Below are positions 28,681 through 43,718 of a DNA stretch of 64,000 nt, piece after piece. The position numbers and the translations under genes were made by a program. The stretch is from a virus (Duplodnaviria > Caudoviricetes). The notes beneath the pieces were generated by a model. It was not told where the DNA came from, searched no databases, and was given only the letters and a program-made list of their open reading frames with translations. Every line of letters begins with the position of its first letter. The stretch's first letter is position 1. The stretch lies in IMG/VR virus record IMGVR_UViG_2513237329_000015, positions 1 to 64,000 of that record, one strand, 5' to 3'.

Positions 28681-29070
28681 ATGGCAGAGAAACAACTCAC
28701 CACCATAGAGCAGTTACGGGCACTGGCAGAGCGAGGGAAACAGGACACCCTGATCCGCATCAACGAACTATTGGACTCGATGATCCCTCTGCTGGAAAGC
28801 GCGCAGCATGCCGGCATCACCGTCACTCTGCCGGCCGAGAAGTGGAGCGGCAGAGCTCAAACCGTGCAGGACGAGTTCCTCCTGGCTGACGGAAAATACT
28901 GGTACATTGTGTGCGCCGACGCAGACTGCTTTATGGCGGCAAGCGAGACCGGCGTAAAAGCCGATAACATTACAACGGACGGTCAGGTCACGTTCCGGTG
29001 CGAGGTCACCCCCACGGAGAACCTGACGATTTCTATTTTGCGACTGGAGGTCGAGCAGAGCAATGAGTAA
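28681..29070 (+). CDS. Small fibre adaptor-like phage protein (129 aa)
   Basis: AAGGAG RBS; C-terminal domain resembles the C-terminus of 25734-27041. Confidence 0.65.
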   Translation: MAEKQLTTIEQLRALAERGKQDTLIRINELLDSMIPLLESAQHAGITVTLPAEKWSGRAQTVQDEFLLADGKYWYIVCADADCFMAASETGVKADNITTDGQVTFRCEVTPTENLTISILRLEVEQSNE

Positions 29071-31801
29071 CGCTAACGTCGGCAAGGTTTTCAACATGAC
29101 CGGCGGCAACGGTGGCGGCGGCGCTCTGAAGCTGGAGACCCTGGCAATTACCAAGCAGCCCAACAAGACAATCTATAAGTCCGGGGAGTCCTTTGACCCG
29201 ACCGGCATGGTGGTCACGGCGGGCTATGGGTACGGTCTTACTTCAGACGTGACCGGCTACACCGTTTCGCCTCAGGTTCTGACGGATGGGGTCACGGAGG
29301 TGACCATTACTTACACGGAGGGGCGGATCACCAAGACGGCCAGCGTACCCGTGACAGTGAAGAAGGTGCTGGTGTCCATCGCCATCACGGCAAACCCGAC
29401 AAAGATGACATACCAGTATCTGGAGACCTTTGATCCGGCCGGAATGGTGGTCACAGCCACTTATTCGGACGAATCCTCGGAGGAAGTCTCCGGATACACC
29501 CACTCCCCGGACGCGTTCTCCGCACTGGGGCAGCAGGCAGTGCAGATCCAGTACGCCTACGAGGGCGTGACCAAGACCGCAAGCCTGACGGTGACGGTGA
29601 ACCCCATCGAGGTGGCCGTCCCGGTTCAAAATGGAGTTCTGACCTATGACGGAGAGACCAAGACGCCGGCGTGGACCGGATATGACACCGGAAAGATGAC
29701 CATTTCCGGAGAAACCAATGGCGTCAATGCAGGCACCTATTCCGCCAAGTTTGTTCTGGACTATGGCTATGTATTCCCCGGAGGGCAGAATGAGGCGACC
29801 GTAAGCTGGGTCATCGACCGGGCGGTCATCGCTTCGCCGCCGAAGCAGAGCAATGCGCTGGCGGCCAATGGAAAGCCCCAGTCCCCCACCTGGGACAACT
29901 ATGACACCAGCAAGCTGACCATCGGCGGAGAGCGGTTCGGCACAGAGGCCAAGGACTATACCGCCACCTTTACCCCCACGCCCAACTACAAGTGGTGGGA
30001 CGGCTCCACCGGGGCCAAGGAGGTCATCTGGACCATCACCAGCGTCATCGTACCCATCCCGGTGCAGAAGGGCTCTCCCGTTTATACGGGCGCGCCGCAG
30101 ACGCCAGAGTGGGACAACTTTGACCAGGAGAATTCCTCGGTATCGGTGACACCCCAGACCAACGCGGGCACCCATACCGCCACCTTTACCCTGCTGAAAG
30201 GCATGTGGTCGGACGGCACCACCGGGAAGAAGACGGTAAACTGGACCATTGGCCGGGCCAGCCTGGCGGCGGTGCCAAAGCAGAGCAGCGTGCCGAAGTA
30301 CGACGGCAACCCCAAGACCCCGTCCTGGGACAGCAACTATGACAGCAATAAGATGACTGTTTCGGTGGAGCCCCAAATCAACGCCGGGACGGGATACACC
30401 GCCACCTTTACACCGGACTCCAACCATCAGTGGTGGGACGGCGAAGTGGGCGGCAAGACCGCGACCTGGTCCATCGCCAAGGGCGATCAGGTGGTGACGG
30501 TAAACCCCGCGGCTGTGACCCTGAACACCAGCGCCCGAAGCGCCAAATTCACGGTGACCCGGAAAGGGGACGGTGTGATCTCCGCCATCTCCAACAATCA
30601 GAGTGTGGCTACCGTGAGCAACGTCAATCAGATCACGGGGGAGGTGACGGTGAACAGTGTAAAGGACACCACAGGCACCACCACAATTACCGTCAAGGTG
30701 GCAGAGGGGGGCAACTATCTGGCCGGCGCGGACAAGCAGGTACAGGTCAAGGCTCAGTTCGTCACCATCTACGGCGTGGAGTGGGATTGGACCAGCAGCG
30801 GCTCCACCAAGGGAAAGCGCACGGACGGGGCGACCGGGTTCGGCGACCCCAATCCGGCAGTGAATAATGGCTCCGGCTCCTCTCCATTTGACAACCTGTA
30901 CCCGTGGAGGGACATGACCAAGGTTACCCGGACCGGTGGTGTGATGGTGAAGGAGCCCAAGTATTGGTTCAAGTGGACCAAGACGGGGAAGAAGTTGAAG
31001 CTGCAAATCGCGGACGGCCCTGTTGAGGGGTTCCATGTGGACCCTGTGAATATGGATCGGGGCGATGGCTTGGGCGAGCTGGATCACTCCTACATCGGCC
31101 GGTACCACTGCGGCTCCAACTGGAAATCGGAGACCAATCAGGCGCAGATGGTCAACATCACCCGTTCCATTGCCCGCACCAATATCCACAATCTGGGGAC
31201 GAACATCTGGCAGATGGACTTTGCCCAGTTCTGGTATGTGAATATGCTGTTCCTGGTGGAATTCGCGGACTGGAACGGTGAGCGCATCGGCCTGGGCTGT
31301 TCGGCCAGCGGCTCCAGGGAAAACAACGGAAAGACGGACGCCATGAAATACCACACGGGAACCACGGCGGTCAACCGGAATTCCTATGGGTTCTGCCAGT
31401 ACCGGAATATCGAGGGTTGGTGGGACAACGTGTACGACTGGATGGACGGGTGCTACTACAATGCCAATGGCCTGAATGTCATCAAGAATCCCAATCAGTT
31501 CAGTGACAATGCCAACGGGGTTCTGGTGGGCAAGCCAACCAGCGGCTACCCCAGCGATTTCGCCATCCCGACTCAAAGCGGCCTGGAGTGGGCGCTTTAC
31601 CCCTCCGAATCCTCTGGCAGTACTACAACTTGTGTCCCGGATAGCTGGGATTTCAACGGTAGTAACCCGTGCCTGCGCCATGGCGGTTGCTATAGCCAGG
31701 GCCAGAGTCACGGGCCTTTCTGCGTGTACTTCTACAGCGCGTCGTACTCCTACTCCTTCATCGGCTGTCGCCTCCAGGAGCGCCCGCCGAAGGCGGCGTG
31801 A
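29063..31801 (+). CDS. DGR target: multi-Ig-like-domain receptor-binding/adhesin protein with C-terminal variable (CLec-type) domain
   Basis: Two Ig-like (Big_3-type) repeats (P.K..Y..GE.FDPTGMVVTA.Y), further beta-repeats, C-terminal YRNIEGWWDNVYDWMDG...IGCRLQ containing the VR. Confidence 0.9.
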   Translation: MSNANVGKVFNMTGGNGGGGALKLETLAITKQPNKTIYKSGESFDPTGMVVTAGYGYGLTSDVTGYTVSPQVLTDGVTEVTITYTEGRITKTASVPVTVKKVLVSIAITANPTKMTYQYLETFDPAGMVVTATYSDESSEEVSGYTHSPDAFSALGQQAVQIQYAYEGVTKTASLTVTVNPIEVAVPVQNGVLTYDGETKTPAWTGYDTGKMTISGETNGVNAGTYSAKFVLDYGYVFPGGQNEATVSWVIDRAVIASPPKQSNALAANGKPQSPTWDNYDTSKLTIGGERFGTEAKDYTATFTPTPNYKWWDGSTGAKEVIWTITSVIVPIPVQKGSPVYTGAPQTPEWDNFDQENSSVSVTPQTNAGTHTATFTLLKGMWSDGTTGKKTVNWTIGRASLAAVPKQSSVPKYDGNPKTPSWDSNYDSNKMTVSVEPQINAGTGYTATFTPDSNHQWWDGEVGGKTATWSIAKGDQVVTVNPAAVTLNTSARSAKFTVTRKGDGVISAISNNQSVATVSNVNQITGEVTVNSVKDTTGTTTITVKVAEGGNYLAGADKQVQVKAQFVTIYGVEWDWTSSGSTKGKRTDGATGFGDPNPAVNNGSGSSPFDNLYPWRDMTKVTRTGGVMVKEPKYWFKWTKTGKKLKLQIADGPVEGFHVDPVNMDRGDGLGELDHSYIGRYHCGSNWKSETNQAQMVNITRSIARTNIHNLGTNIWQMDFAQFWYVNMLFLVEFADWNGERIGLGCSASGSRENNGKTDAMKYHTGTTAVNRNSYGFCQYRNIEGWWDNVYDWMDGCYYNANGLNVIKNPNQFSDNANGVLVGKPTSGYPSDFAIPTQSGLEWALYPSESSGSTTTCVPDSWDFNGSNPCLRHGGCYSQGQSHGPFCVYFYSASYSYSFIGCRLQERPPKAA
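31633..31773 (+). repeat. DGR variable repeat (VR)
   Basis: 141-bp ungapped match to 31959-32099; all 18 mismatches lie opposite TR adenines. Confidence 0.97.
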
Positions 31802-31864
31802 CTTATTCCCCTGTAGAGGAGGGGGTTTGGGGTGAGGGGACCGCAGTCCCTTCCCCCAACCTCC
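31784..31864 (+). promoter_or_regulatory. Hairpins downstream of VR (candidate DGR target-recognition cruciform)
   Basis: CCGCC-GAA-GGCGG (31784-31796) and GGGAC-CGCA-GTCCC core (31837-31850) with imperfect G-rich/C-rich extended arms; absent downstream of TR. Confidence 0.6.
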
Positions 31865-31958
31865 GCCTTATAAAAATTCAAAATGGAGCGATTTTGCTCT
31901 AATAAACCGCTTTTCCTTTGGTAAGGGGAAAGCGCGGGGTCAACTTTGCAGCAGACGA

Positions 31959-32099
31959 TGTCCCGGATAACTGGAATTTCAACGGTAGTAACCCGTGCCT
32001 GCACCATGGCGGTAACTATAACCAGAACCAGAATCACGGGCCTTTCTACGTGAACTACAACAACGCGTCGAACTCCAACTCCAACATCGGCTGTCGCCT
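31959..32099 (+). repeat. DGR template repeat (TR)
   Basis: Adenine-bearing copy of VR with 14 AAY codons; lies between target gene and RT. Confidence 0.97.
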
Positions 32100-32320
32100 T
32101 CTTGAAGCAGACGCAGGTCGAAGGACCTGTCGGGTATGGCTAAACCTCCTTTTGGTAGTCAGGGTTCCTCACCCTTTCTATTACGCATCGTTGACCGCGC
32201 AGCACTTGCTGAAGATGAGCCGTCAGGACACAGCTTAGTACACTTCGGGCCGGGTCCCGCCCCGGAACCACCCGCGGCGATGGAACAGTTGTGAGGCTAC
32301 AAGGAGGAACACTATCCCTG

Positions 32321-33496
32321 ATGAAACGAGTTAGAATTTACCAACAAATCATTTCCGATGAAAACCTGCGTCTGGCTATTCAGGATGTCAACCGGGGACA
32401 CCGGCGCAACGGCGACCACAGCTTAAATAAGAAGGTCATGGAAATCGAGGAGCATATCGATGAATATGTGGTAAAACTCCGCAAGTTCATCGAGGACCTG
32501 GTGGCCGGGGACGAGCATATGCATAAACCGCTGCAACGGCGGAAGTGGGACCGGAACGCGGACAGCGGCAAAGGGAAATGGCGGGATATCAACGAGCCGC
32601 TCTTGTGGCCGGACCAGTATGTCCACCATGCGGTGGTGCAGCCCATGATCCCGCACATCAGGCGGAGCATGGACAAGTATTGTATCGCAAGCGTACCAGG
32701 GCGTGGCAACTCTTATGGCGTAAAGGTTTTAAAGAAATGGATGAAGAACGACCCTGTGGGCACCCAATACTGCGCGGAGTGCGATATTCACCATTGCTTT
32801 GTGGAGGTGGACCCGCCGTATGTCATCCACGCGCTGAAACGGCTGTTCAAGGATCGGGAAACGCTCTGGCTATGCGATGCGCTGATGGAGTACGGAGTCC
32901 TGATCGGCGCATTCTTCTCCGCATGGTTCCTGCATTTGCTGCTCCAACCGCTGGATCTGATGATCCACCAAAAGCAATATGGCGTGAGCCACTATCTGCG
33001 GCAGATGGACAACTTCACAATCTTCGGTCCCAATAAACGGAAACTGCGGAAGCTGCTGGAGGACATCAAAGCATGGCTGGGTGAAATCGGCATGAAACTG
33101 AAAGACACCTGGCAGATCTTCCGGGTGGGCTTTACGCCAAAGGTGGCAAAGGCCCACGGGGACTTATCCGAGAAGAAACAGCGGCACCGCCGTCCAAGAA
33201 TTCCGTCGGCATTGGGCTATCGTTTCGGGCATGGGTACACGATCCTCCGAAAGCACAATCTGTTCCGACTCAAGCAAGCGCTGCACACCTACTACCACCG
33301 GCGAGACCGGAACCGGGTCATTTCTTTTAAGCGGGCATCCGGGCTGATCTCAAGACTGGGGCAATTGCGTAAGTGCAACAGTCAGCGAATATTGGAGCGG
33401 TATTACCAGCCGAATACCATGCTCAATCTCAAGAAAGTCGTCCGAAGGGAATGTCGGCGGCTACAACGATTATATCCGCCTTATCGGGCGGCCTGA
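32321..33496 (+). CDS. DGR reverse transcriptase (non-canonical motifs)
   Basis: RT domain order: RDINEP..WPDQYVHHA, ASVPGRG, YCAECDIHHCF, GVLIGAFFSAWF, YLRQMDNF (YxDD position), ALGYRF; adjacent to TR. Confidence 0.92.
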   Translation: MKRVRIYQQIISDENLRLAIQDVNRGHRRNGDHSLNKKVMEIEEHIDEYVVKLRKFIEDLVAGDEHMHKPLQRRKWDRNADSGKGKWRDINEPLLWPDQYVHHAVVQPMIPHIRRSMDKYCIASVPGRGNSYGVKVLKKWMKNDPVGTQYCAECDIHHCFVEVDPPYVIHALKRLFKDRETLWLCDALMEYGVLIGAFFSAWFLHLLLQPLDLMIHQKQYGVSHYLRQMDNFTIFGPNKRKLRKLLEDIKAWLGEIGMKLKDTWQIFRVGFTPKVAKAHGDLSEKKQRHRRPRIPSALGYRFGHGYTILRKHNLFRLKQALHTYYHRRDRNRVISFKRASGLISRLGQLRKCNSQRILERYYQPNTMLNLKKVVRRECRRLQRLYPPYRAA

Positions 33497-33510
33497 AAGG
33501 AGTGGCACCT

Positions 33511-33840
33511 ATGAAAGTACAGGGAATGGTCGATCCGGGGAAGTTCACCGTGGAGCAGATCCCGGGAACCAACCGAAGCCTTGTGCGGCTGTTTCAAAAT
33601 GTAAAACCGGCAGAAACCGAGGAGTTCACCGGATATGAGTACGACGAGTACCACGTGGAGGTGGAAACCTGGGACGGGATTGTCCGGAACGTCCGGGACA
33701 ACTATGAGGAGTTCCTGAAGAAAGGCATGGACAATGAGATCGACCTCAGCAACGAGGCTCTGTATCGTGCTCAGAAAGAGCTGGCGTCCTATGTGGAACT
33801 GGCCAATGCGATTCGGGAAGGAGTGAACGGAGTTGACTGA
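33511..33840 (+). CDS. Hypothetical phage protein (109 aa) directly downstream of the RT
   Basis: AAAGGAG RBS immediately after the RT stop codon; acidic. Confidence 0.75.
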   Translation: MKVQGMVDPGKFTVEQIPGTNRSLVRLFQNVKPAETEEFTGYEYDEYHVEVETWDGIVRNVRDNYEEFLKKGMDNEIDLSNEALYRAQKELASYVELANAIREGVNGVD

Positions 33841-35148: not shown

Positions 35149-35432
35149 TTGACCGTTCGAGCCCTGATATTGCTGGATTTTAAGTTTTTATGATAATTAC
35201 CTATAAGATAAAATCTCAACTTTTATATACAAATTCAAGCCCCTCGTGCAAAGCTATAATATCTAAATATACGCACTTACCTTTCCCTGTCCCCCAATGG
35301 GGATAGAACAGGTCGGATAAACAGTCTCCCCTAAGAAAGAACTTAGAATTGGAGGCGGGCGAAATGCCTTAGTGAAAAGAAGGGTATGAACAGAGTAAGC
35401 GTATTTTGAAGTGCGAAGGGAGCTGGAGATTT

Positions 35433-38400
35433 ATGAAGGTAAAAAGATACTGGAAAAAGATCTTATCCTTGGTACTGACGTCAGCACTCCTGCTCGGCTT
35501 GTTGCCGACTGCGGCCTTTGCCTATTCCCCGGATGAAAAAACGGATATCATTGAGTTCAAGGCTATGGTACTTGAGAATTTGACGGGCGGAACCGTATCC
35601 GAGTATCAGTACCTGACCACCGACAATACATTTTACAGCGACATCAATATGAATGGCTATACGGATGAAGATGGCGAGTATGGCTATTCTTGGACGATGC
35701 TGTCCTATACGATTGAGAAAACGCAGCCGGTCAACCTGATGCTGTACCGCATGAATGATGACACGGAGTATGTCTACGGCGACACGGTGAACCTCACCCA
35801 CTCGGAGAGCCCAGAGGCAGATGAACCGTTTATCGGAGAGTTTATCGGATATCTGCATGGCACCCCTCTGCTGGACGAGAACGGGGAACCGTTTATTGGT
35901 GATATTCCGGAAGAGGAGCTCCAGGAATTGATTTGGCAAGCCGTTTGGGGCGGCTTACCCTCAGAAACAATAAAGGAATATACCGCGTTTGGCTTCACCG
36001 GTGAGGAGTTGGATATCTCCAATGCGATAGATGCCCCAGAACCTACCGAGACGCCTACGGAGCCGAAGCCCACCGAGACGCCCACGGAGCCAGAACCTAC
36101 CGAGACGCCCACGGAGCCGGAACCCACCGAGACGCCCACGGAGCCGGAACCCACCGAGACGCCCGCGGAGCCGGAACCCACCGAGACGCCCGCGGAGCCG
36201 GAACCCACCGAGACGCCCGCGGAGCCGGAGCCCACCGAGACGCCTGCGGAACCGGAGCCCACCGAGACGCCCACGGAGCCGGAACCCAGCGAGACGCCCA
36301 CGGAGCCGGAACCCAGCGAGGATTCCGCAGATTCAGGACCTGGTGAAGTCCCCGCAGAACAAAAGGCAAGTGCAGCCCCTGTGATGCTGGAGTCCAGCGA
36401 GGAACCTGCAGAGCCGGAGCCCACCGAGACGCCCGCAGAGCCGGAGCCCACCGAGACGCCTGAAGAGCCGGAGCCCACCGAGACACCCGTAGAGTCGGAG
36501 CCCACCGAGACGCCTGCGGAGCCGGAGCCCACCGAGACGCCTGCGGAGCCGGAGCCCACCGAGATGCCCGCAGAGCCGGAGCCCATCGAGACGCCCGTAG
36601 AACCTGAGCCTACTCCAGTGGAAACAGAACCACAGGTTCCCCAATATACAGAGGCCGATGTTTTGATTGACCGGGGTGCCAATGGACTGTTTCGCGCGGA
36701 CACGGATGAGGGCGCCTATACTAAGAACTATCTCCTCTGGGATGGTCTGATCGAAACAGAAGATGGCGCTCTTACATACTGCAATCTTGAGAGCGGAAAT
36801 TATGTTATTGTCATGCAGCCTACCACTCCGGGGGCGGAAAAGTACAGGAGCTTCCTGGCTTTTTCGCAGAATTCTGAGCGGCAGGATCAGTTCCTGAACT
36901 CGGACGCTTGGAGCGAGCTGGAGGCGATGGCGGAAAAATACGGTTGGACAGTTGACCCCGTGGACCTGTTGACCGGAAGCTTCAAGTGGGAATACCAGGA
37001 TCTGGCGCTTTACGGGAAAGACGATCTTCCGTTTATCCGGTATTATAACTCGTCCGATTTTGAGGATGACCATGGCCTCGGCCTAGGCTGGAGCAGCAAC
37101 TATACCGCATTTTTGGATATTGAGAATCTCTTTGTCCGGGCCATCCTGCCAAACGGCAGGGAGCTCTATTTCAACCTCAACTTCGACGATACCTTCCGGC
37201 CGGTGGGAGACTGCACGCTGGAGTGGGCTGGCGGGGAGTTCCTGTTGAAGAACACCAGTGATGGGACAAGCTATGCCTTCACAAAGGAAGGTGATCTGGC
37301 ACGGATCGACTATTTGAATGGGAATACCGTGCAGTTTAGCTATACTGGCGATCAGCTTACCGAAATCTCGAATGCCTCCGGCAGCCTTTTGCTGGAGTAC
37401 ACTGGCGGACACATATCCAGAATTACGGACAGCACAGGCCGCAGTATCACCCTCACCTATGACGGCGATTACCTGTCCCAGGTGGATAATCCAGACGGAA
37501 ACAGCTTCTCTTATACATATGAGGACGGCTGCTTGACCGAGGTTTCCAACCTAAAGGGCGAGGTGTATGTCCAGAACGTGTATGATTCCCAGGGACGAGT
37601 CGTGCACCAGGAAGTCGCCAACATGGGTGTATTCGACTTCACGTATGATACGGACAACCGGGTCAATACCTGCACAGGTACAGACGGCTACCTGCTGGAA
37701 ATCCACTACGATGAGTTGGGACGGATTACCCGGAGCACAAATGCGGAGGGGACTGCCCGCATCACCTACAATGAGGAAAATCAGGTAACCAGTGAGACAG
37801 ACCGCGAGGGCAACACCACCCGCTATACTCACGACGAGGCGGGGAATATCTCCCGCATCACCTATCCGGACGGCACGACGGAGGACTTTGTCTATAATGA
37901 AGACCGGCTGGTTACGGAGTTTACCGACCGGAACGGCATTACCAGTTCCTATACATATGATGACAAGGGTAACGCTACCAGCCTGACCGACGGCCGCGGC
38001 AACACAATTTCCTGTGAGTATGACGCTATGGGCAATATGCTCACTCAGACAGATGCCGAAGGGAATACGACTACCTACACCTACGACGCGGTGGGAAACT
38101 GTACCTCAGTAAGGGATGCCCGCGGCAATCAGACCACTATGGAATATGACAGACAGGGCCGCCTGCTCTCCCAGATAGATGCCCAGGGCAACACCACTTC
38201 CTATGAGTATACCGATGCGGGTAAGCTCGTAAAAATGACGGACGCCCAGGGCAACGTGCAGAACTACACCGTAGACGGCAATGGCTTCAATACCAGCGAG
38301 AGCGACTGGCTGGGAAACACTACAACCAGTGAGCGCAATGCCCAGAACCAGGTCACAAAGATCACGGATCCGCTGGGCAACGCCACGACCTACTCCTATG

Positions 38401-41400
38401 ATGACCGGGGCAATATGACTGTGGCCACTGACGCCAACGGGCATTCCACCACCTATACCTACGATGCCGCGGGGCGTATGCTCTCCATGACAACCTCCAA
38501 TGGCGGTACCTGGAGCTATGGCTATGACAACGAGGGGCGGCAGATCTCCGCCACCGATCCCGCCGGCGGGACCACTACGACCCATTATGACAGTACCGGC
38601 CGCACTACTTCTACCACTGACGCCCGTGGTGCTGAGACCTCTTACACCTATGACGGTGTGGGAAATACCATCCAAACCAAAGATGCACTGGGCAACAGCA
38701 CTGTGATGGAATATGACGCCAATGGCAACTTGATCTCCCAGACCGACCGCACCGGCGCCCAAACGACCTATACCTATGACGCCAACAACCGTATGGTCAG
38801 CAGCACGGATGCGTTGGGCCAAGTTACACAGTATAGCTATGATGAGGTAGGAAATCTGATCTCTACCACTACCCCGGAAGGGAATAAATCCTCCGCGGAA
38901 TATGACGATCTGAACCGGGCAGGCTCCTCTACCGACGCTCTGAGCCGCGTGACCGCGCAGGAATATGACAGCTTGGGCCGTGTGATCAGGACCACCTATG
39001 CCGACGGCTCTAGTGTGTCCTATACTTACGATGCCAACGGGCAGGTGCTCACTGCTACGGACGAAATGGGGGGCGTGGTATCCTATACCTACGATGCCAA
39101 TGGCCGTATGCTCACTACTACCGATCCCATGGGCGGCGTTACCAGTACCACCTATGATGCGGTAGGTAATGTGCTCAGCGAAACAACCCCCATGGGCTTC
39201 ACAACCACCTATACCTACGACGGGGACAACAATGTAGCCGCCGTCACCGATGCCAATGGTGCTGCGACCTCCTATACCTATGACGCCATGGATCGGGTGA
39301 GCACCGTGACCGACCCCATGGGAGGCACCACCAGCTACACCTATGATGCCGCTGGCAATCAGAGCACGATCACCGACGCAGAGGGCGGAGTGACCCGCTA
39401 TGAGTATGACCTGCTGGGCCGCACCACTTCCATGACCGATGCCCGCGGCAATACCTGGATCTACGAATACGACAATGAGGGCCGAGCCACTGCGACTGTG
39501 GATCCGTTGAACTACTCCACATCCAAGAGTTACGACGCCATTGGCCAGCTTGTCAGCGAGACGGATGCCAACGGCAACACCTGGACCTACACCTACGATA
39601 AGGACGGCCGGCAGACATCTCAAACTGACCCGCTGGGCAATACGACGACATATGCCTACGACGCGGTGGGCAACCTCCTCACCAGCACCACGGCGTTGGG
39701 GCGAACCACCAGCTATACCTACGATGCCCGGAACCGCAAGACCAGCGAGACCGATCCTATGGGCCATGTGATCACCTTCTACTACGATGCCCTGGGGCGG
39801 CTGGTTGGAGCGGACAATAAGGATGGAACGCATGTCTCCACCACCTATGACGCCAACGGGAATACCCTGACTACCACGGACGAAGAGGGCTATGTGGTCT
39901 CCTATGTCTATGACCTGGACGGCCGTATGACGGAGATGACCAATGCCCGTGGGTACAAGACCTCCTATACCTACGACGCGGTGGGCAATCAGATTTCCAT
40001 CACCGATGCCAAGGGTGGTGTGACCAGCTCCGTCTATGATGCCAATGGCAATCTGACCTCTGAGACTGATGTGCTGGGCAATACGACCACTTATACCTAT
40101 GACAAGCTGGGCCGGCTGCTCACCATCACCGATCCCAAGGGCGGCGTGACGGCCTCGGAGTATGATGCCAACGGCAATCTGGTCAAGGCCACCGATGCGG
40201 AGGGCCATGTCATTACCTATACCTATGATGCGCTCAACCGCCTGAGCAGCTACGTGGACACCGAGGGCTACACCCACTCCTATACTTACGACGGCAACGG
40301 CAACGTTCTCACAGAGACCGACGGCCGGGGCAACACGACTACCTATACCTATGACGGCCTGAACCGGCAGGTGGGTATGACTGATGCCGAGGGCGGTGTG
40401 TCCTCCAACACCTACGATGCCGACGGCCGCCTGATCCAGACAACCAATGCGGAAGGCGCTGTGACCAAGTATATCTACGATGACTGCGACCGCGTGGTGG
40501 AGATGATCGACGCTCTGGGCAACTCCACCAAGTACACCTATGACGCGATGGACCGGGTGCTCACCGTGACAGACCCGCGCGGCGGCGTGACCACTTATAC
40601 CTACACGGACCGCGGCGACGTGGCCACCGAGACCGATGCCGAGGGCTACACCGTCTCCTATGAGTACGACGGCAATCACAATATGGTGAAGAAGACCACC
40701 GTGGACGGCGACACCACCTATGTCTATGACGAGCTGGACCGGCTGATCTCCACCACCACCCCGGACGGCAAAACCGAAAATATCGAGTACGACGGCAAGG
40801 GACAGGTGACCGCTTCCACCGATAAGGGCGGACACACCACGAAGTATGTCTATGACGCTGCCGGCAACGTGATCCAGACCATCGACGCCAAGGGCAATGT
40901 TGCGGCCTTTGAGTATGACCTGATGGGCAACCTCACAAAGGTCACCCTGCATCGTGTGGATACCCAGGACGGCGTGGACGAGTATGAGGTCACCCTGTAT
41001 GAGTACGACGGCCGGGGCCTCGTCACCAAGGTTGTGGATGCTCTGGGCAACGTGACCACCACGGAGTACGACGGCAACGGCAATATCGCAAAGGTCACCG
41101 ATGCGGACGGATATGTGACGGAATATACCTACAATGCCCTTGATATGGTGACGCATATCAACTATAACGGGGGCAAAGAGGTGTCCTATCAGTACAATGC
41201 CGTTGGCGACCTGGTGCAGATGGACGATTGGACGGGTACCAACACCTTTGAGGTGGATCTGCTCAACCGAATCACTGCGGTCACCAATGAGAAGGGCAAC
41301 AAGGTTACCTATGAGTATGATGCCACTGGAAACCAGACCAGAGTAGGCTATCCTGACGGTACCAGTGTGACCAAGACCTATGATTTGGTGGGCAACCTGG

Positions 41401-43718
41401 AGAGCGTCGTGGAAAGCGACGGCCGAACCACCACCTACCAGTACGACGGGATGCGGCGCTTGGTTCACATGAACTATCCGGATGGCTGGCAGGAGGACTA
41501 CACCTATGACGCCGTTGGCCAGATCCTGAGTATCTATGACACCGATCCCACCGGACAGGACATGAAGCAGCAGAAGAACAAGTTCGAGTACGACGCCTGC
41601 GGCAACATGACCTATGAGTATATGCGGGGCAACGGCACCGGAGGGGCTACCACAGAGGTGTTCTACACTTATGATGAGCTCCATCAGGTGGTGACGGCAA
41701 AGGAGAACTACGGCAACAAAACGCGCACCTACCAGTATGACAGCCTGGGCAACCTGACCTATGAGACCAACAGCAACAATGTCCAGTACGACTATAAGCT
41801 CAACAATCTCAACCAACTGGTGGAAAAGACCTACAGCAAGGGCAAGGAGCATACGGTCTATACCTACGATGGCCGAGGCAACCTGGTCGAGGAGGAGTAC
41901 GGGAAGAACAAAAAGACCGCCACGGTCGGCGCGTACACCTTCGATGAGACGAACCGGATGGTGCTGGGCGTCAACGCCGACAGCGAGAGCAGCGCCTATA
42001 CCTTCAACGGCCTGGGGGCGCTGGTGGAGCAGACCTGGACGATCAAGAAGAACAGCTACGGCTACCACGACGGTTCTGAGACGGCTGCGCTGACTGCTCA
42101 GGGAGGAGCGGCGGAGACTGAGAGCGGGGCCGATGCGGAGGCGCAGGCCGCGGCTCCGGCTCCTGACACCGGTACGGCTCTTTTGGATGAGCTGGATGCC
42201 ATGGGCGACCCGGCCGCTGCTCTGGATGCAGAATTGGGGATCATGCCCTTGAAGAACGACCACAGCGATAAGAAGCCGGACGATAAGCCCGGCCACAAGC
42301 CGAACCAGATGATCACCGTGGTCAAGCAGTTCTTCCCGGATTACACCCGGGAGACCCTGGACCCGCTGGTGGAGAACGAGGTGGGCGGCCTGGAGTACCG
42401 GTATGTCTATGGCAATGAGCGCCTGAGCGTCAACATCACCGGAATCGAGAACGGCGCGGGGAGCATTGTGGAGAACGGCAACCAGGTACGGCTCTACTAC
42501 CACCAGGATCTGCGCGGTACGGTGGACTACCTGACCAGCCCGGTGAGCCAGAAGATCGAGAGCTGGACACACTACAACGAGTGGGGCGAGATCACCCACA
42601 ATGCGGTACTCAAGTGCGGCCAGCGGCAGCTCGACCTGGTGAAGAACTACACCGGTCATGAGTATGACGCGGTGCTCAACCTCTACTTTGCCAAGGCCCG
42701 CTTCTACGACGCGGAGAACCGGCGCTTCATCTCCATGGATCCGGTAAAGGGTTCAGTCAAGGATCCGATCTCCATGGTGCAGTATCTGTATGTTAAGAAC
42801 GCTCCTCTGATCTATACTGATCCCACAGGAGAAAAATATTCTCTTGCGCAGGGAACTGTAGCCCATGCGGAGATTACGGCTTACATTAAAAGTATTGAGC
42901 CCACTGCGGAAGGTGGAGTGAAGATAGTTGGACTCACCAGGACAAAGTCTGGCCGTGGATTTGCAGACATAATCATCAAAAATGGAGGAAACCATGATGT
43001 CTATGAAATAAAGTCCGACCAATATGAGTTTTTGGGAAGATATAATGCCGCTGCTATTAACCAGTTGGACTCTTATGTCAACGCAATAACCAACTATCCA
43101 GTAGAAAATGCCAACTATTATCCAGCTAGAAAGGGCACAAAGGTGATTCCAACTCCGGTATATCTTCCCTACCTTTTGGATCGAACAAAAGTAATACGTG
43201 TATATACAAAATACAACAAGTATCCTGGTCTCATTTTTTACGAGATTATGAAAGCACCGCAGAATAAGCAAGTTGTTGCGGAGGAGTCCTTTGTTACAGC
43301 TTCGCTACTGCAAACGGTAAGCTACTATGGAATGGTTACATGTGAGTACCCACCAGCCTATTACCAAGATTACATTAATGTTGATTCTTATTTGGATCAA
43401 CAAATGAATGATGATATTCAAGCATGGCTTGATGGTGCAACCGTTTCAACATATACCGAAGGGCTTAATATTTATACTAAGATAGTATATGCAGATGGTA
43501 CCGAGGTTTACCGTTATGAGGGGCTGGGAGTTCCTTTTTTGACAACTACTCCTAAGCTAAGCGGTAGTGAATTGCTCACAATTAGAGAGGGTGGAACTTA
43601 TAACCAACTACAAGGCTGGGCGTCATCTGCAAAAGAAGCATTTAATTTGCAAAAAGCCGCATCGACAGTCCCGGTGCTACCGCTTCCTGGAGGAGGCGTA
43701 GTCGTACCGGTAGTCTGA
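35433..43718 (+). CDS. Sec-exported Rhs/YD-repeat polymorphic toxin (2761 aa)
   Basis: Signal peptide MKVKRYWKKILSLVLTSALLLGLLPTAAFA; VDPVDLLTG/GLGWS pre-Rhs domain; many YTYD..G repeats; core end YTGHEYD..LYFAKARFYD...RFISMDP...YLYVKNAPLIYTDPTG. Confidence 0.95.
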   Translation: MKVKRYWKKILSLVLTSALLLGLLPTAAFAYSPDEKTDIIEFKAMVLENLTGGTVSEYQYLTTDNTFYSDINMNGYTDEDGEYGYSWTMLSYTIEKTQPVNLMLYRMNDDTEYVYGDTVNLTHSESPEADEPFIGEFIGYLHGTPLLDENGEPFIGDIPEEELQELIWQAVWGGLPSETIKEYTAFGFTGEELDISNAIDAPEPTETPTEPKPTETPTEPEPTETPTEPEPTETPTEPEPTETPAEPEPTETPAEPEPTETPAEPEPTETPAEPEPTETPTEPEPSETPTEPEPSEDSADSGPGEVPAEQKASAAPVMLESSEEPAEPEPTETPAEPEPTETPEEPEPTETPVESEPTETPAEPEPTETPAEPEPTEMPAEPEPIETPVEPEPTPVETEPQVPQYTEADVLIDRGANGLFRADTDEGAYTKNYLLWDGLIETEDGALTYCNLESGNYVIVMQPTTPGAEKYRSFLAFSQNSERQDQFLNSDAWSELEAMAEKYGWTVDPVDLLTGSFKWEYQDLALYGKDDLPFIRYYNSSDFEDDHGLGLGWSSNYTAFLDIENLFVRAILPNGRELYFNLNFDDTFRPVGDCTLEWAGGEFLLKNTSDGTSYAFTKEGDLARIDYLNGNTVQFSYTGDQLTEISNASGSLLLEYTGGHISRITDSTGRSITLTYDGDYLSQVDNPDGNSFSYTYEDGCLTEVSNLKGEVYVQNVYDSQGRVVHQEVANMGVFDFTYDTDNRVNTCTGTDGYLLEIHYDELGRITRSTNAEGTARITYNEENQVTSETDREGNTTRYTHDEAGNISRITYPDGTTEDFVYNEDRLVTEFTDRNGITSSYTYDDKGNATSLTDGRGNTISCEYDAMGNMLTQTDAEGNTTTYTYDAVGNCTSVRDARGNQTTMEYDRQGRLLSQIDAQGNTTSYEYTDAGKLVKMTDAQGNVQNYTVDGNGFNTSESDWLGNTTTSERNAQNQVTKITDPLGNATTYSYDDRGNMTVATDANGHSTTYTYDAAGRMLSMTTSNGGTWSYGYDNEGRQISATDPAGGTTTTHYDSTGRTTSTTDARGAETSYTYDGVGNTIQTKDALGNSTVMEYDANGNLISQTDRTGAQTTYTYDANNRMVSSTDALGQVTQYSYDEVGNLISTTTPEGNKSSAEYDDLNRAGSSTDALSRVTAQEYDSLGRVIRTTYADGSSVSYTYDANGQVLTATDEMGGVVSYTYDANGRMLTTTDPMGGVTSTTYDAVGNVLSETTPMGFTTTYTYDGDNNVAAVTDANGAATSYTYDAMDRVSTVTDPMGGTTSYTYDAAGNQSTITDAEGGVTRYEYDLLGRTTSMTDARGNTWIYEYDNEGRATATVDPLNYSTSKSYDAIGQLVSETDANGNTWTYTYDKDGRQTSQTDPLGNTTTYAYDAVGNLLTSTTALGRTTSYTYDARNRKTSETDPMGHVITFYYDALGRLVGADNKDGTHVSTTYDANGNTLTTTDEEGYVVSYVYDLDGRMTEMTNARGYKTSYTYDAVGNQISITDAKGGVTSSVYDANGNLTSETDVLGNTTTYTYDKLGRLLTITDPKGGVTASEYDANGNLVKATDAEGHVITYTYDALNRLSSYVDTEGYTHSYTYDGNGNVLTETDGRGNTTTYTYDGLNRQVGMTDAEGGVSSNTYDADGRLIQTTNAEGAVTKYIYDDCDRVVEMIDALGNSTKYTYDAMDRVLTVTDPRGGVTTYTYTDRGDVATETDAEGYTVSYEYDGNHNMVKKTTVDGDTTYVYDELDRLISTTTPDGKTENIEYDGKGQVTASTDKGGHTTKYVYDAAGNVIQTIDAKGNVAAFEYDLMGNLTKVTLHRVDTQDGVDEYEVTLYEYDGRGLVTKVVDALGNVTTTEYDGNGNIAKVTDADGYVTEYTYNALDMVTHINYNGGKEVSYQYNAVGDLVQMDDWTGTNTFEVDLLNRITAVTNEKGNKVTYEYDATGNQTRVGYPDGTSVTKTYDLVGNLESVVESDGRTTTYQYDGMRRLVHMNYPDGWQEDYTYDAVGQILSIYDTDPTGQDMKQQKNKFEYDACGNMTYEYMRGNGTGGATTEVFYTYDELHQVVTAKENYGNKTRTYQYDSLGNLTYETNSNNVQYDYKLNNLNQLVEKTYSKGKEHTVYTYDGRGNLVEEEYGKNKKTATVGAYTFDETNRMVLGVNADSESSAYTFNGLGALVEQTWTIKKNSYGYHDGSETAALTAQGGAAETESGADAEAQAAAPAPDTGTALLDELDAMGDPAAALDAELGIMPLKNDHSDKKPDDKPGHKPNQMITVVKQFFPDYTRETLDPLVENEVGGLEYRYVYGNERLSVNITGIENGAGSIVENGNQVRLYYHQDLRGTVDYLTSPVSQKIESWTHYNEWGEITHNAVLKCGQRQLDLVKNYTGHEYDAVLNLYFAKARFYDAENRRFISMDPVKGSVKDPISMVQYLYVKNAPLIYTDPTGEKYSLAQGTVAHAEITAYIKSIEPTAEGGVKIVGLTRTKSGRGFADIIIKNGGNHDVYEIKSDQYEFLGRYNAAAINQLDSYVNAITNYPVENANYYPARKGTKVIPTPVYLPYLLDRTKVIRVYTKYNKYPGLIFYEIMKAPQNKQVVAEESFVTASLLQTVSYYGMVTCEYPPAYYQDYINVDSYLDQQMNDDIQAWLDGATVSTYTEGLNIYTKIVYADGTEVYRYEGLGVPFLTTTPKLSGSELLTIREGGTYNQLQGWASSAKEAFNLQKAASTVPVLPLPGGGVVVPVV
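36036..36320 (+). repeat. 27-bp tandem repeat (PEPTETP[T/A]E x10) in the Rhs N-terminal linker
   Basis: Repeated CCGGAACCCACCGAGACGCCC(A/G)CGGAG units. Confidence 0.92.
36405..36614 (+). repeat. Second 27-bp tandem repeat block (about 7 units)
   Basis: PEPTETPAE-type units, more degenerate. Confidence 0.88.
42831..43718 (+). other. Rhs C-terminal toxin domain, PD-(D/E)xK nuclease-like
   Basis: Follows DPTG; abrupt GC drop; G..AH..I..Y, GFADII, VYEIKS motifs. Confidence 0.65.

Follow-up and report, generated by a model that had tools for sequence, protein, structure and literature searches.

A probably functional Avd-less phage diversity-generating retroelement whose reverse transcriptase belongs to a conserved QMDN lineage

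The window analysed here, a 64,000-nucleotide (nt) stretch of a Caudoviricetes record (IMG/VR record IMGVR_UViG_2513237329_000015, positions 1 to 64,000), contains a diversity-generating retroelement (DGR) whose reverse transcriptase (RT) reads QMDN in place of YxDD, the catalytic box taken to define RTs. Based on sequence comparisons, we consider it highly probable that this element, carried by an Oscillospiraceae prophage and arranged as target gene with variable repeat (VR), template repeat (TR) and RT gene (Table 1), is a functional phage DGR that lacks Avd, and that its RT comes from a conserved lineage whose active site has been remodelled. The cassette has a TR/VR pair differing at adenines, an RT gene adjoining the TR, a target gene whose 3' end holds the VR, and VR turnover, but has neither the [I/V/L]GxxxSQ signature nor a YxDD box with both aspartates, nor Avd.

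The RT is encoded by an unbroken open reading frame (ORF) at 32291-33496 (401 amino acids, aa), and residue numbers count from its GTG at 32291. The likely start is the ATG at 32321, giving a protein of 391 aa, because most homologues are 391 aa long and begin at ORF residue 11. The codons CGG CAG ATG GAC AAC TTC at 32999-33016 encode R237-Q-M-D-N-F242, with QMDN at 33002-33013; motif A is AECDIHHCF, and motif B is GVLIGAFFSAWF, within which lies LIGAFFSA. The only sequence match that phmmer returned from the Protein Data Bank (PDB) was the Bordetella DGR RT, bRT (8ub7), and in this alignment RQMDNF is paired with RYMDDI, GVLIGAFFSAWF with GIPIGSLTSQLF, and CDIHHCF with SDFSKFF. The active-site substitutions are accordingly Tyr to Q238, the second Asp to N241 and the Gln of SQ to A211, with D165 and D240 retained; of the published DGR RT signature [I/V/L]GxxxSQ (PMC7826257, PMC3521204), the Ile, Gly and Ser are present and the Gln is Ala. 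An initial annotation, made by a model from the letters of the DNA, had reported the QMDN and SA replacements, a retained first catalytic Asp in CDI and an intact ORF, and each of these readings held.

An AlphaFold2 model of the RT, built with 74 homologues, had a mean pLDDT of 93, and its best PDB match was bRT (8ub7_A, template-modelling (TM) score 0.85, target-normalised), with group II intron RTs matching less well. All sequence and fold matches were RTs, whether of DGRs, group II introns, retrons or DRT systems. Among 74 diverse DGR RTs, K96, R98, G139, D165, G206, R237, D240 and G309 were invariant. I205 aligns with I181 of bRT in the phmmer alignment, and R98 is probably the counterpart of bRT R74, this alignment starting only at query residue 104; in bRT, adenine mutagenesis was shown to be promoted by two residues, R74 and I181 (PMC7826257).

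The VR aligns with the TR without gaps over 141 nt, and all 18 mismatches fall at TR adenines, so that 18 of the 39 TR adenines are changed and nothing else is, in keeping with the heavily adenine-mutated VR described initially. The TR lies upstream of the RT gene, 221 nt from its ATG, and the only ORFs between the target gene and the RT gene are reading frames overlapping the TR. The VR ends 28 nt short of the stop codon of the Big_3/tail protein gene; in the region where an initiation of mutagenic homing (IMH) site would be expected, TR/VR homology stops at a GC-rich block followed by a 5-bp GC hairpin whose fold is no better than that of shuffled sequences (z = -0.95). A PDB sequence search with the VR domain and C-terminal region of the target returned no match. 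The 97-kb provirus record, rated 100% complete by CheckV, encodes a single RT, the QMDN RT, and no match to Avd (PF05635) was found anywhere across it. Avd is found in 74% of DGRs and is not obligatory. Relatives of the RT were found in metagenome-assembled genomes (MAGs) of Oscillospiraceae and Lawsonibacter, and in gut and faecal metagenome runs.

That QMDN might be a sequencing or assembly artefact can be dismissed. Logan contigs of four public runs, which represent at most three samples and three studies, had zero base differences from the window over 31777-33500, the sole discrepancy being a 1-base gap at 31853 in one run, within the non-coding interval that separates VR from TR. The identical RT is also present in an IMG/VR record, and the motif recurs in 91 clusters of the database, of which some contain thousands of sequences. 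These clusters come from the 120 best homologues in a set of 5.8 billion proteins, among which motif C was QMDN in 91, YMDN in 8 and DD in none, the remainder being truncated or frameshifted at the motif; the idea that the nearest homologues might all carry Y(M/A)DD was thus not borne out. Some of the homologue clusters are very large (4,607 member sequences in P0015 and 1,121 in P0001). In these homologues QMDN is accompanied by SA, rarely by SS, and relatives at approximately 50% identity have YMDN with SQ, placing the QMDN and SA combination, on these alignments, as a derived subclade of a YMDN family.

Aligned by codon and compared as 620 locus pairs, 38 RT genes of IMG/VR loci gave a median dN of 0.105, a median dS of 1.28 and a median dN/dS of 0.07, with a maximum of 0.21. 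The codon for residue 241 is AAC in 37 of the 38 loci and AAT in the other, though an Asp codon is one transition away, and residue 238 is encoded by CAG in 37 loci and by TAT in the YMDN outlier. Because these two codons are near-invariant at low dN/dS, with Asp a single transition off, N241 and Q238 are under selection and more than just tolerated. Taken together, the alignments strongly support QMDN with SA as a lineage trait under purifying selection, not a private or dead allele.

Evidence that the lineage still diversifies VRs came from comparison between loci. Each of the 31 related IMG/VR loci whose upstream sequence was long enough had a TR/VR pair, with 14-21 mismatches at adenine sites and at most 2 others. 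Among 30 QMDN loci, 21 TR columns are polymorphic at non-adenine bases, and at these columns the VR carries the base of its own TR in 600 of 609 cases; TR-to-VR transfer therefore postdates the divergence of the QMDN RTs. Four loci (L004-L007) have identical TRs and different VRs. Their flanks are 99.9-100% identical, downstream over 1718 nt that cover the spacer, TR and RT and, where the pair is comparable, upstream over 2000 nt. Between their VRs, 20-24 of the 141 positions differ, every one a TR adenine, against 0-2 differences in approximately 3.7 kb of flank. Another isolate with identical flanks has a VR with 19 differences from that of the window, of which 18 lie at TR adenines. In the contig graph of the isolate assemblies, there is one RT/TR copy at approximately 1x depth and there are two VR-bearing loci, the two VRs differing at 15 sites, all TR adenines. 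These comparisons show recent, adenine-specific copying from TR to VR in the QMDN lineage.

The initial annotation had allowed that this might be a recently inactivated RT that froze its VR. A single substitution, GAC to AAC, would be enough for this, and runs of one organism, organism A, from two samples have the same VRs. However, QMDN is the ancestral state of a clade whose dS exceeds 1, as YMDN is of a deeper clade, no close homologue has DD, the median dN/dS is 0.07, and phages with identical flanks have different VRs; recent inactivation is at odds with these data, and we reject it. The distinct RT lineage that the annotation had favoured over a knock-out is strongly supported by QMDN and SA being clade-wide, by purifying selection, and by the continuing diversification of the VRs.

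Several points nevertheless weigh against a working QMDN enzyme. Both YxDD aspartates of HIV-1 RT have been reported to be essential. A catalytic role is generally assigned to the second YxDD Asp, and in the DiGReF set of DGR RTs both aspartates are 100% conserved and the first position is Tyr or Phe (PMC3521204). Some hosts carry several DGR RTs, as in one MAG with QMDN, YMDN and YMDD RTs, and one of five further related viral records has a second RT. Moreover, the organism A runs, with filing dates from 2009 to 2019 and two source samples (one for X1, the other for X2 and X11), share the same two VRs, although this agreement is uninformative on activity either way. In a rival reading, the QMDN RT would be dead or non-polymerising, perhaps acting as an RNA chaperone or scaffold, while the VR would be diversified in trans by a canonical YxDD DGR RT of the host or of a co-resident phage. 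Against such help in trans, the QMDN RT is the sole RT in the complete provirus and in the other four of the five related viral records, and two MAGs, both incomplete, have a QMDN RT alone. The TR always lies directly upstream of the QMDN RT, and each VR tracks its own TR. The polymerase core, including both key aspartates, is under strong purifying selection, which would not be demanded of a scaffold, and DN clades that a quick tree places apart, in unrelated phages, also have adenine-mutated VRs. We therefore consider diversification in trans unlikely, and favour a QMDN RT that itself copies the TR.

The spectrum of changes is similar with and without the QMDN box. In QMDN loci (n = 30), 542 of 1233 TR adenines were changed (44%), to G in 65%, T in 30% and C in 5%, compared to 186 of 456 (41%) in sister loci with YMDN and SQ (n = 13, homologous VRs), where the shares were 67% G, 31% T and 2% C; both spectra derive from fixed VRs, already filtered by selection. 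In vitro, bRT misincorporates opposite adenine in the order dCTP > dATP > dGTP, which corresponds to G > T > C (PMC7826257). The altered nucleotide selection that the initial annotation had coupled to a D/D/N active site was consequently rejected as unsupported, the adenine-specific, G > T >> C spectrum being alike in QMDN and YMDN loci. Its emphasis on SA in place of SQ was warranted in that the change is real, but less so in the weight given to it. SQ is not universal, with SA, SP, SH and SV present in many YMDD relatives, and the bRT substitution Q187P (SQ to SP) left misincorporation unchanged (PMC7826257); for these two reasons the SA change is minor.

A wider search of 1.84 billion cluster representatives gave 1704 matches, and 100 full-length representatives from the top matches were analysed. 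The nearest relatives were again RTs, and the examined loci with enough upstream sequence also had TR/VR pairs. The form xxDN was present in 21 of the 100. On a quick IQ-TREE maximum likelihood tree, with SH-aLRT support only, the DN label required 5 changes, at least 4 of them forced by well-supported branches, and none of 500 shuffles was as low; the clade of the window RT comprised 13 rows, all DN, and was sister to a YMDD protein. As far as this quick tree can be followed, the change from Asp to Asn appears to have arisen independently at least 4 times among Avd-less phage DGR RTs. Three DN clades have members adjoining adenine-mutated TR/VR pairs, namely the window clade, YVDN and HMDN/YMDN, with adenine-site plus other mismatches of 15 + 1 (YVDN, L068), 9 + 1 (HMDN, L072), 13 + 1 (YMDN, L073) and 14 + 1 (HMDN, L074). 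No TR/VR pair was found beside the YIDN RT P0191, on a 3.6-kb contig with approximately 1.6 kb upstream of the RT, and the contigs of P0228 (YMDN), P0243 (YADN) and P0184 (NVDD) end too near the RT upstream for a TR/VR comparison.

Two further positions change along with the Asn. Residue 163, two before the motif-A Asp, is Glu or Gln in all 21 DN RTs, compared to Lys in 60 and Glu or Gln in 13 of the 79 DD RTs. Residue 243, two after the Asn, is Thr, His, Asn, Ser or Trp in DN RTs, with one Val, compared to Val, Leu, Ile, Cys or Met in 75 of the 79 DD RTs. Both covary with D241N in all five DN groups. We tentatively propose, as an idea that we are almost as ready to accept as to doubt, that an alternative DGR RT active site has evolved repeatedly, with Lys/Asp/Val becoming Glu or Gln/Asn/Thr, His or Ser at least 4 times, and that the products remained working mutagenic RTs. 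Among the papers searched, none had YMDN, QMDN or YxDN in connection with an RT.

Loss of Avd was considered as a correlate of the Asp-to-Asn change and was rejected, as avd is likewise missing beside the neighbouring YxDD and NMDD RTs, whose VRs show clean adenine mutation. Relatives with Asn in place of the YxDD Tyr (NMDD or NVDD) are P0147, P0152, P0153, P0184, P0192 and P0205, and at L078, an NMDD locus, TR and VR form a clean pair with 18 adenine-site mismatches. Because of these relatives, the first position of the box seems freer in phage DGR RTs (Tyr, Phe, Asn, His or Gln) than the literature says. In a single Oscillospiraceae MAG (G002; loci L044, L058, L057 and L052), one QMDN RT is found together with two YMDN RTs, several YMDD-type RTs and one group II intron RT; this genome thus has multiple DGRs, with TRs that are related but distinct (74% identity).

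How such an active site might work can be framed only conditionally. Catalysis would proceed with D165 and D240 as the metal-binding carboxylates; they are the equivalents of D138 and D215 of bRT, and in the cryo-EM structure of bRT a cation was observed 3 Å from these two residues (10.1101/2023.10.23.563531). N241 could serve as a neutral ligand or hydrogen-bond partner, and E163 (Lys in canonical RTs) and T243 (canonically Val) could re-tune its surroundings, roles that the covariation points to. Glu or Gln at 163 together with a polar residue 243 suggests a hydrogen-bond and charge network rebuilt around N241. The joint changes of SQ to SA and of Tyr to Gln may mean that a Gln contacting the nascent base pair has moved from motif B to motif C. 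Precedent for the Asn exists in related RNA-dependent polymerases, in which only the first motif-C Asp is indispensable, a change of the second lowers activity or shifts metal preference, and Birnaviridae and Mononegavirales naturally have Asn at this position (PMC4634563). The likely cost is a lower catalytic efficiency or a changed metal preference, which a DGR RT might afford, as it would make only approximately 140 nt of cDNA and requires sloppiness at adenines. Since bRT is already very inefficient, and this inefficiency is thought to be linked to adenine mutagenesis (PMC7826257), a further loss is plausibly affordable.

Of the systems already described, the DGR of Bordetella phage BPP-1 (mtd-VR / avd / TR / brt; bRT-Avd-RNA structures 8ub7-8ubf) is similar to that of the window in having the TR upstream of the RT, a phage receptor-binding or tail gene whose 3' end contains the VR, mutagenesis of adenines only in the order G > T > C, and an RT of matching fold. 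The two RTs share the motif-A Asp, the first motif-C Asp, the Ile of IGxxxS and, probably, the Arg at R74/R98. In contrast with BPP-1, the window has no Avd, QMDN instead of YMDD, SA instead of SQ and Glu instead of Lys two before the motif-A Asp; its RT also has longer N- and C-terminal regions than bRT (391 compared to 328 aa), and identity is only approximately 19%. DGRs without Avd have been described as Architecture A, a TR-RT core with no accessory gene, and it was noted that "Lineage 3 lacks avd" (Wu et al. 2018, PMC5758913). The window resembles this architecture in its target-TR-RT order, in the absence of avd, HRDC and MSL genes, and in the association with Firmicutes hosts and their phages, and that survey makes no mention of active-site variants or of the catalytic box (PMC5758913).

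Closest to the window are the YMDN DGR RTs of gut phages, the sister group at approximately 50% identity, which have Asn for the second Asp, Glu or Gln two before the motif-A Asp, Thr after DNF, a homologous TR/VR and target type, and an equal spectrum of adenine changes. Beyond these sisters, the window clade has lost the Tyr (Tyr to Gln, two base changes), the Gln of SQ (to Ala) and the Phe of motif A (to Cys). The polymerases of Mononegavirales (GDNQ) and Birnaviridae likewise combine a right-hand palm with a natural Asn for the second motif-C Asp, with lower efficiency and altered metal use (PMC4634563), but these are RNA polymerases from viruses of eukaryotes, and common descent goes no further than the palm fold, so that the comparison is a mechanistic analogy only. 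No homology of the window RT to them was found, all matches being RTs and the likeness being limited to the Asp-Asn pair.

A large and abundant family of gut-phage RTs whose VRs are rewritten, with only the first YxDD Asp and no Tyr, would represent natural tolerance of a minimal RT active site. The correlated changes of Lys to Glu or Gln, Asp to Asn and Val to Thr would mark residues tied to metal use, catalytic rate and adenine infidelity. As the QMDN and SA element departs from two textbook RT signatures, YxDD and SQ, and yet answers to the functional definition of a DGR, motif filters that demand either would discard such DGRs or mislabel them as inactive. If the alternative active site has indeed arisen repeatedly, polymerisation by two carboxylates and an amide would be expected to differ measurably from that by bRT-type enzymes in metal preference, rate or processivity, and these RTs would offer natural variants for tuning DGR mutagenesis tools and for directed evolution.

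Table 1. Parts of the DGR and adjoining features, in window positions.
Feature	Position	Strand	Remarks
DGR target gene, 912-aa Ig-repeat tail/receptor-binding protein	29063..31801	+	Pfam Big_3; PHROG 5302 "tail protein" over aa 624-911; VR at 3' end
VR (VR1)	31633..31773	+	141 nt, 87% identical to TR
Candidate target-recognition hairpin, GC-rich 5-bp stem and 4-nt loop, just 3' of VR	31785..31798	+	DNA fold, weak
TR	31959..32099	+	39 adenines
TR-to-RT spacer	32100..32320	+	Presumed 3' part of DGR RNA, by position only
DGR RT gene	32321..33496	+	RVT_1 (Pfam); PHROG 1423 "Reverse transcriptase"
RT motif A, E163-C-D165	32777..32785	+	Catalytic Asp retained (D165 = 32783-32785); Glu where canonical relatives have Lys
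RT motif B, LIGAFFSA	32900..32923	+	Ile (= bRT I181) and Ser retained; SQ Gln replaced by Ala
RT motif C, Q238-M-D240-N241-F-T243	33002..33019	+	First Asp retained; Tyr replaced by Gln, second Asp by Asn, next Val by Thr
Small acidic ORF, 109 aa, isoelectric point (pI) 4.5, adjoining RT gene	33511..33840	+	Homologues at same place in most related DGR loci

The second VR-bearing locus of the isolate assemblies lies elsewhere in the host genome. It shares only 31596-31806 with the window, a 211-nt segment that covers the end of the target gene and 5 nt past its stop codon, and has its 15 differences from VR1 at TR adenines within flanks that differ from those of VR1. These flanks are absent from the 64-kb window and from the 97-kb provirus. 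Because there is only one RT/TR copy, the locus probably serves this DGR as a second, remote target. The two VR copies of one isolate apparently have the same sequence.

The small neighbouring ORFs received no function from Pfam, PHROG or NCBIfam. For the acidic ORF downstream of the RT gene, a longer reading from a GTG start (33373) overlaps the 3' end of the RT gene, and the genes called in related loci overlap likewise. Homologues are found at L068, L070-L074, L079 and L081, downstream of both DN and DD RTs, and most have a short aromatic and acidic block (YEYDEY in the window); one has a Phage_tail_APC domain and another XkdX. Judging from these homologues, the ORF is probably a phage gene resembling a tail-fibre chaperone, and a role as a DGR accessory is possible. 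Its size class and pI are the only features that link it to "CH1", a candidate accessory gene (Wu et al. 2018, PMC5758913). A function as an accessory specific to DN RTs was rejected, given that YVDD and NVDD relatives have the ORF and that one homologue has a tail-assembly-chaperone domain.

Just downstream of the tail and DGR module, 35406-43718 (+) encodes a 2770-aa RHS/YD-repeat protein with a signal-like segment at its N terminus, long Pro/Thr/Glu tandem repeats of the PTEPEPTET type and a C-terminal region without a Pfam match, which is probably polymorphic-toxin-like cargo or a host gene within the provirus call.

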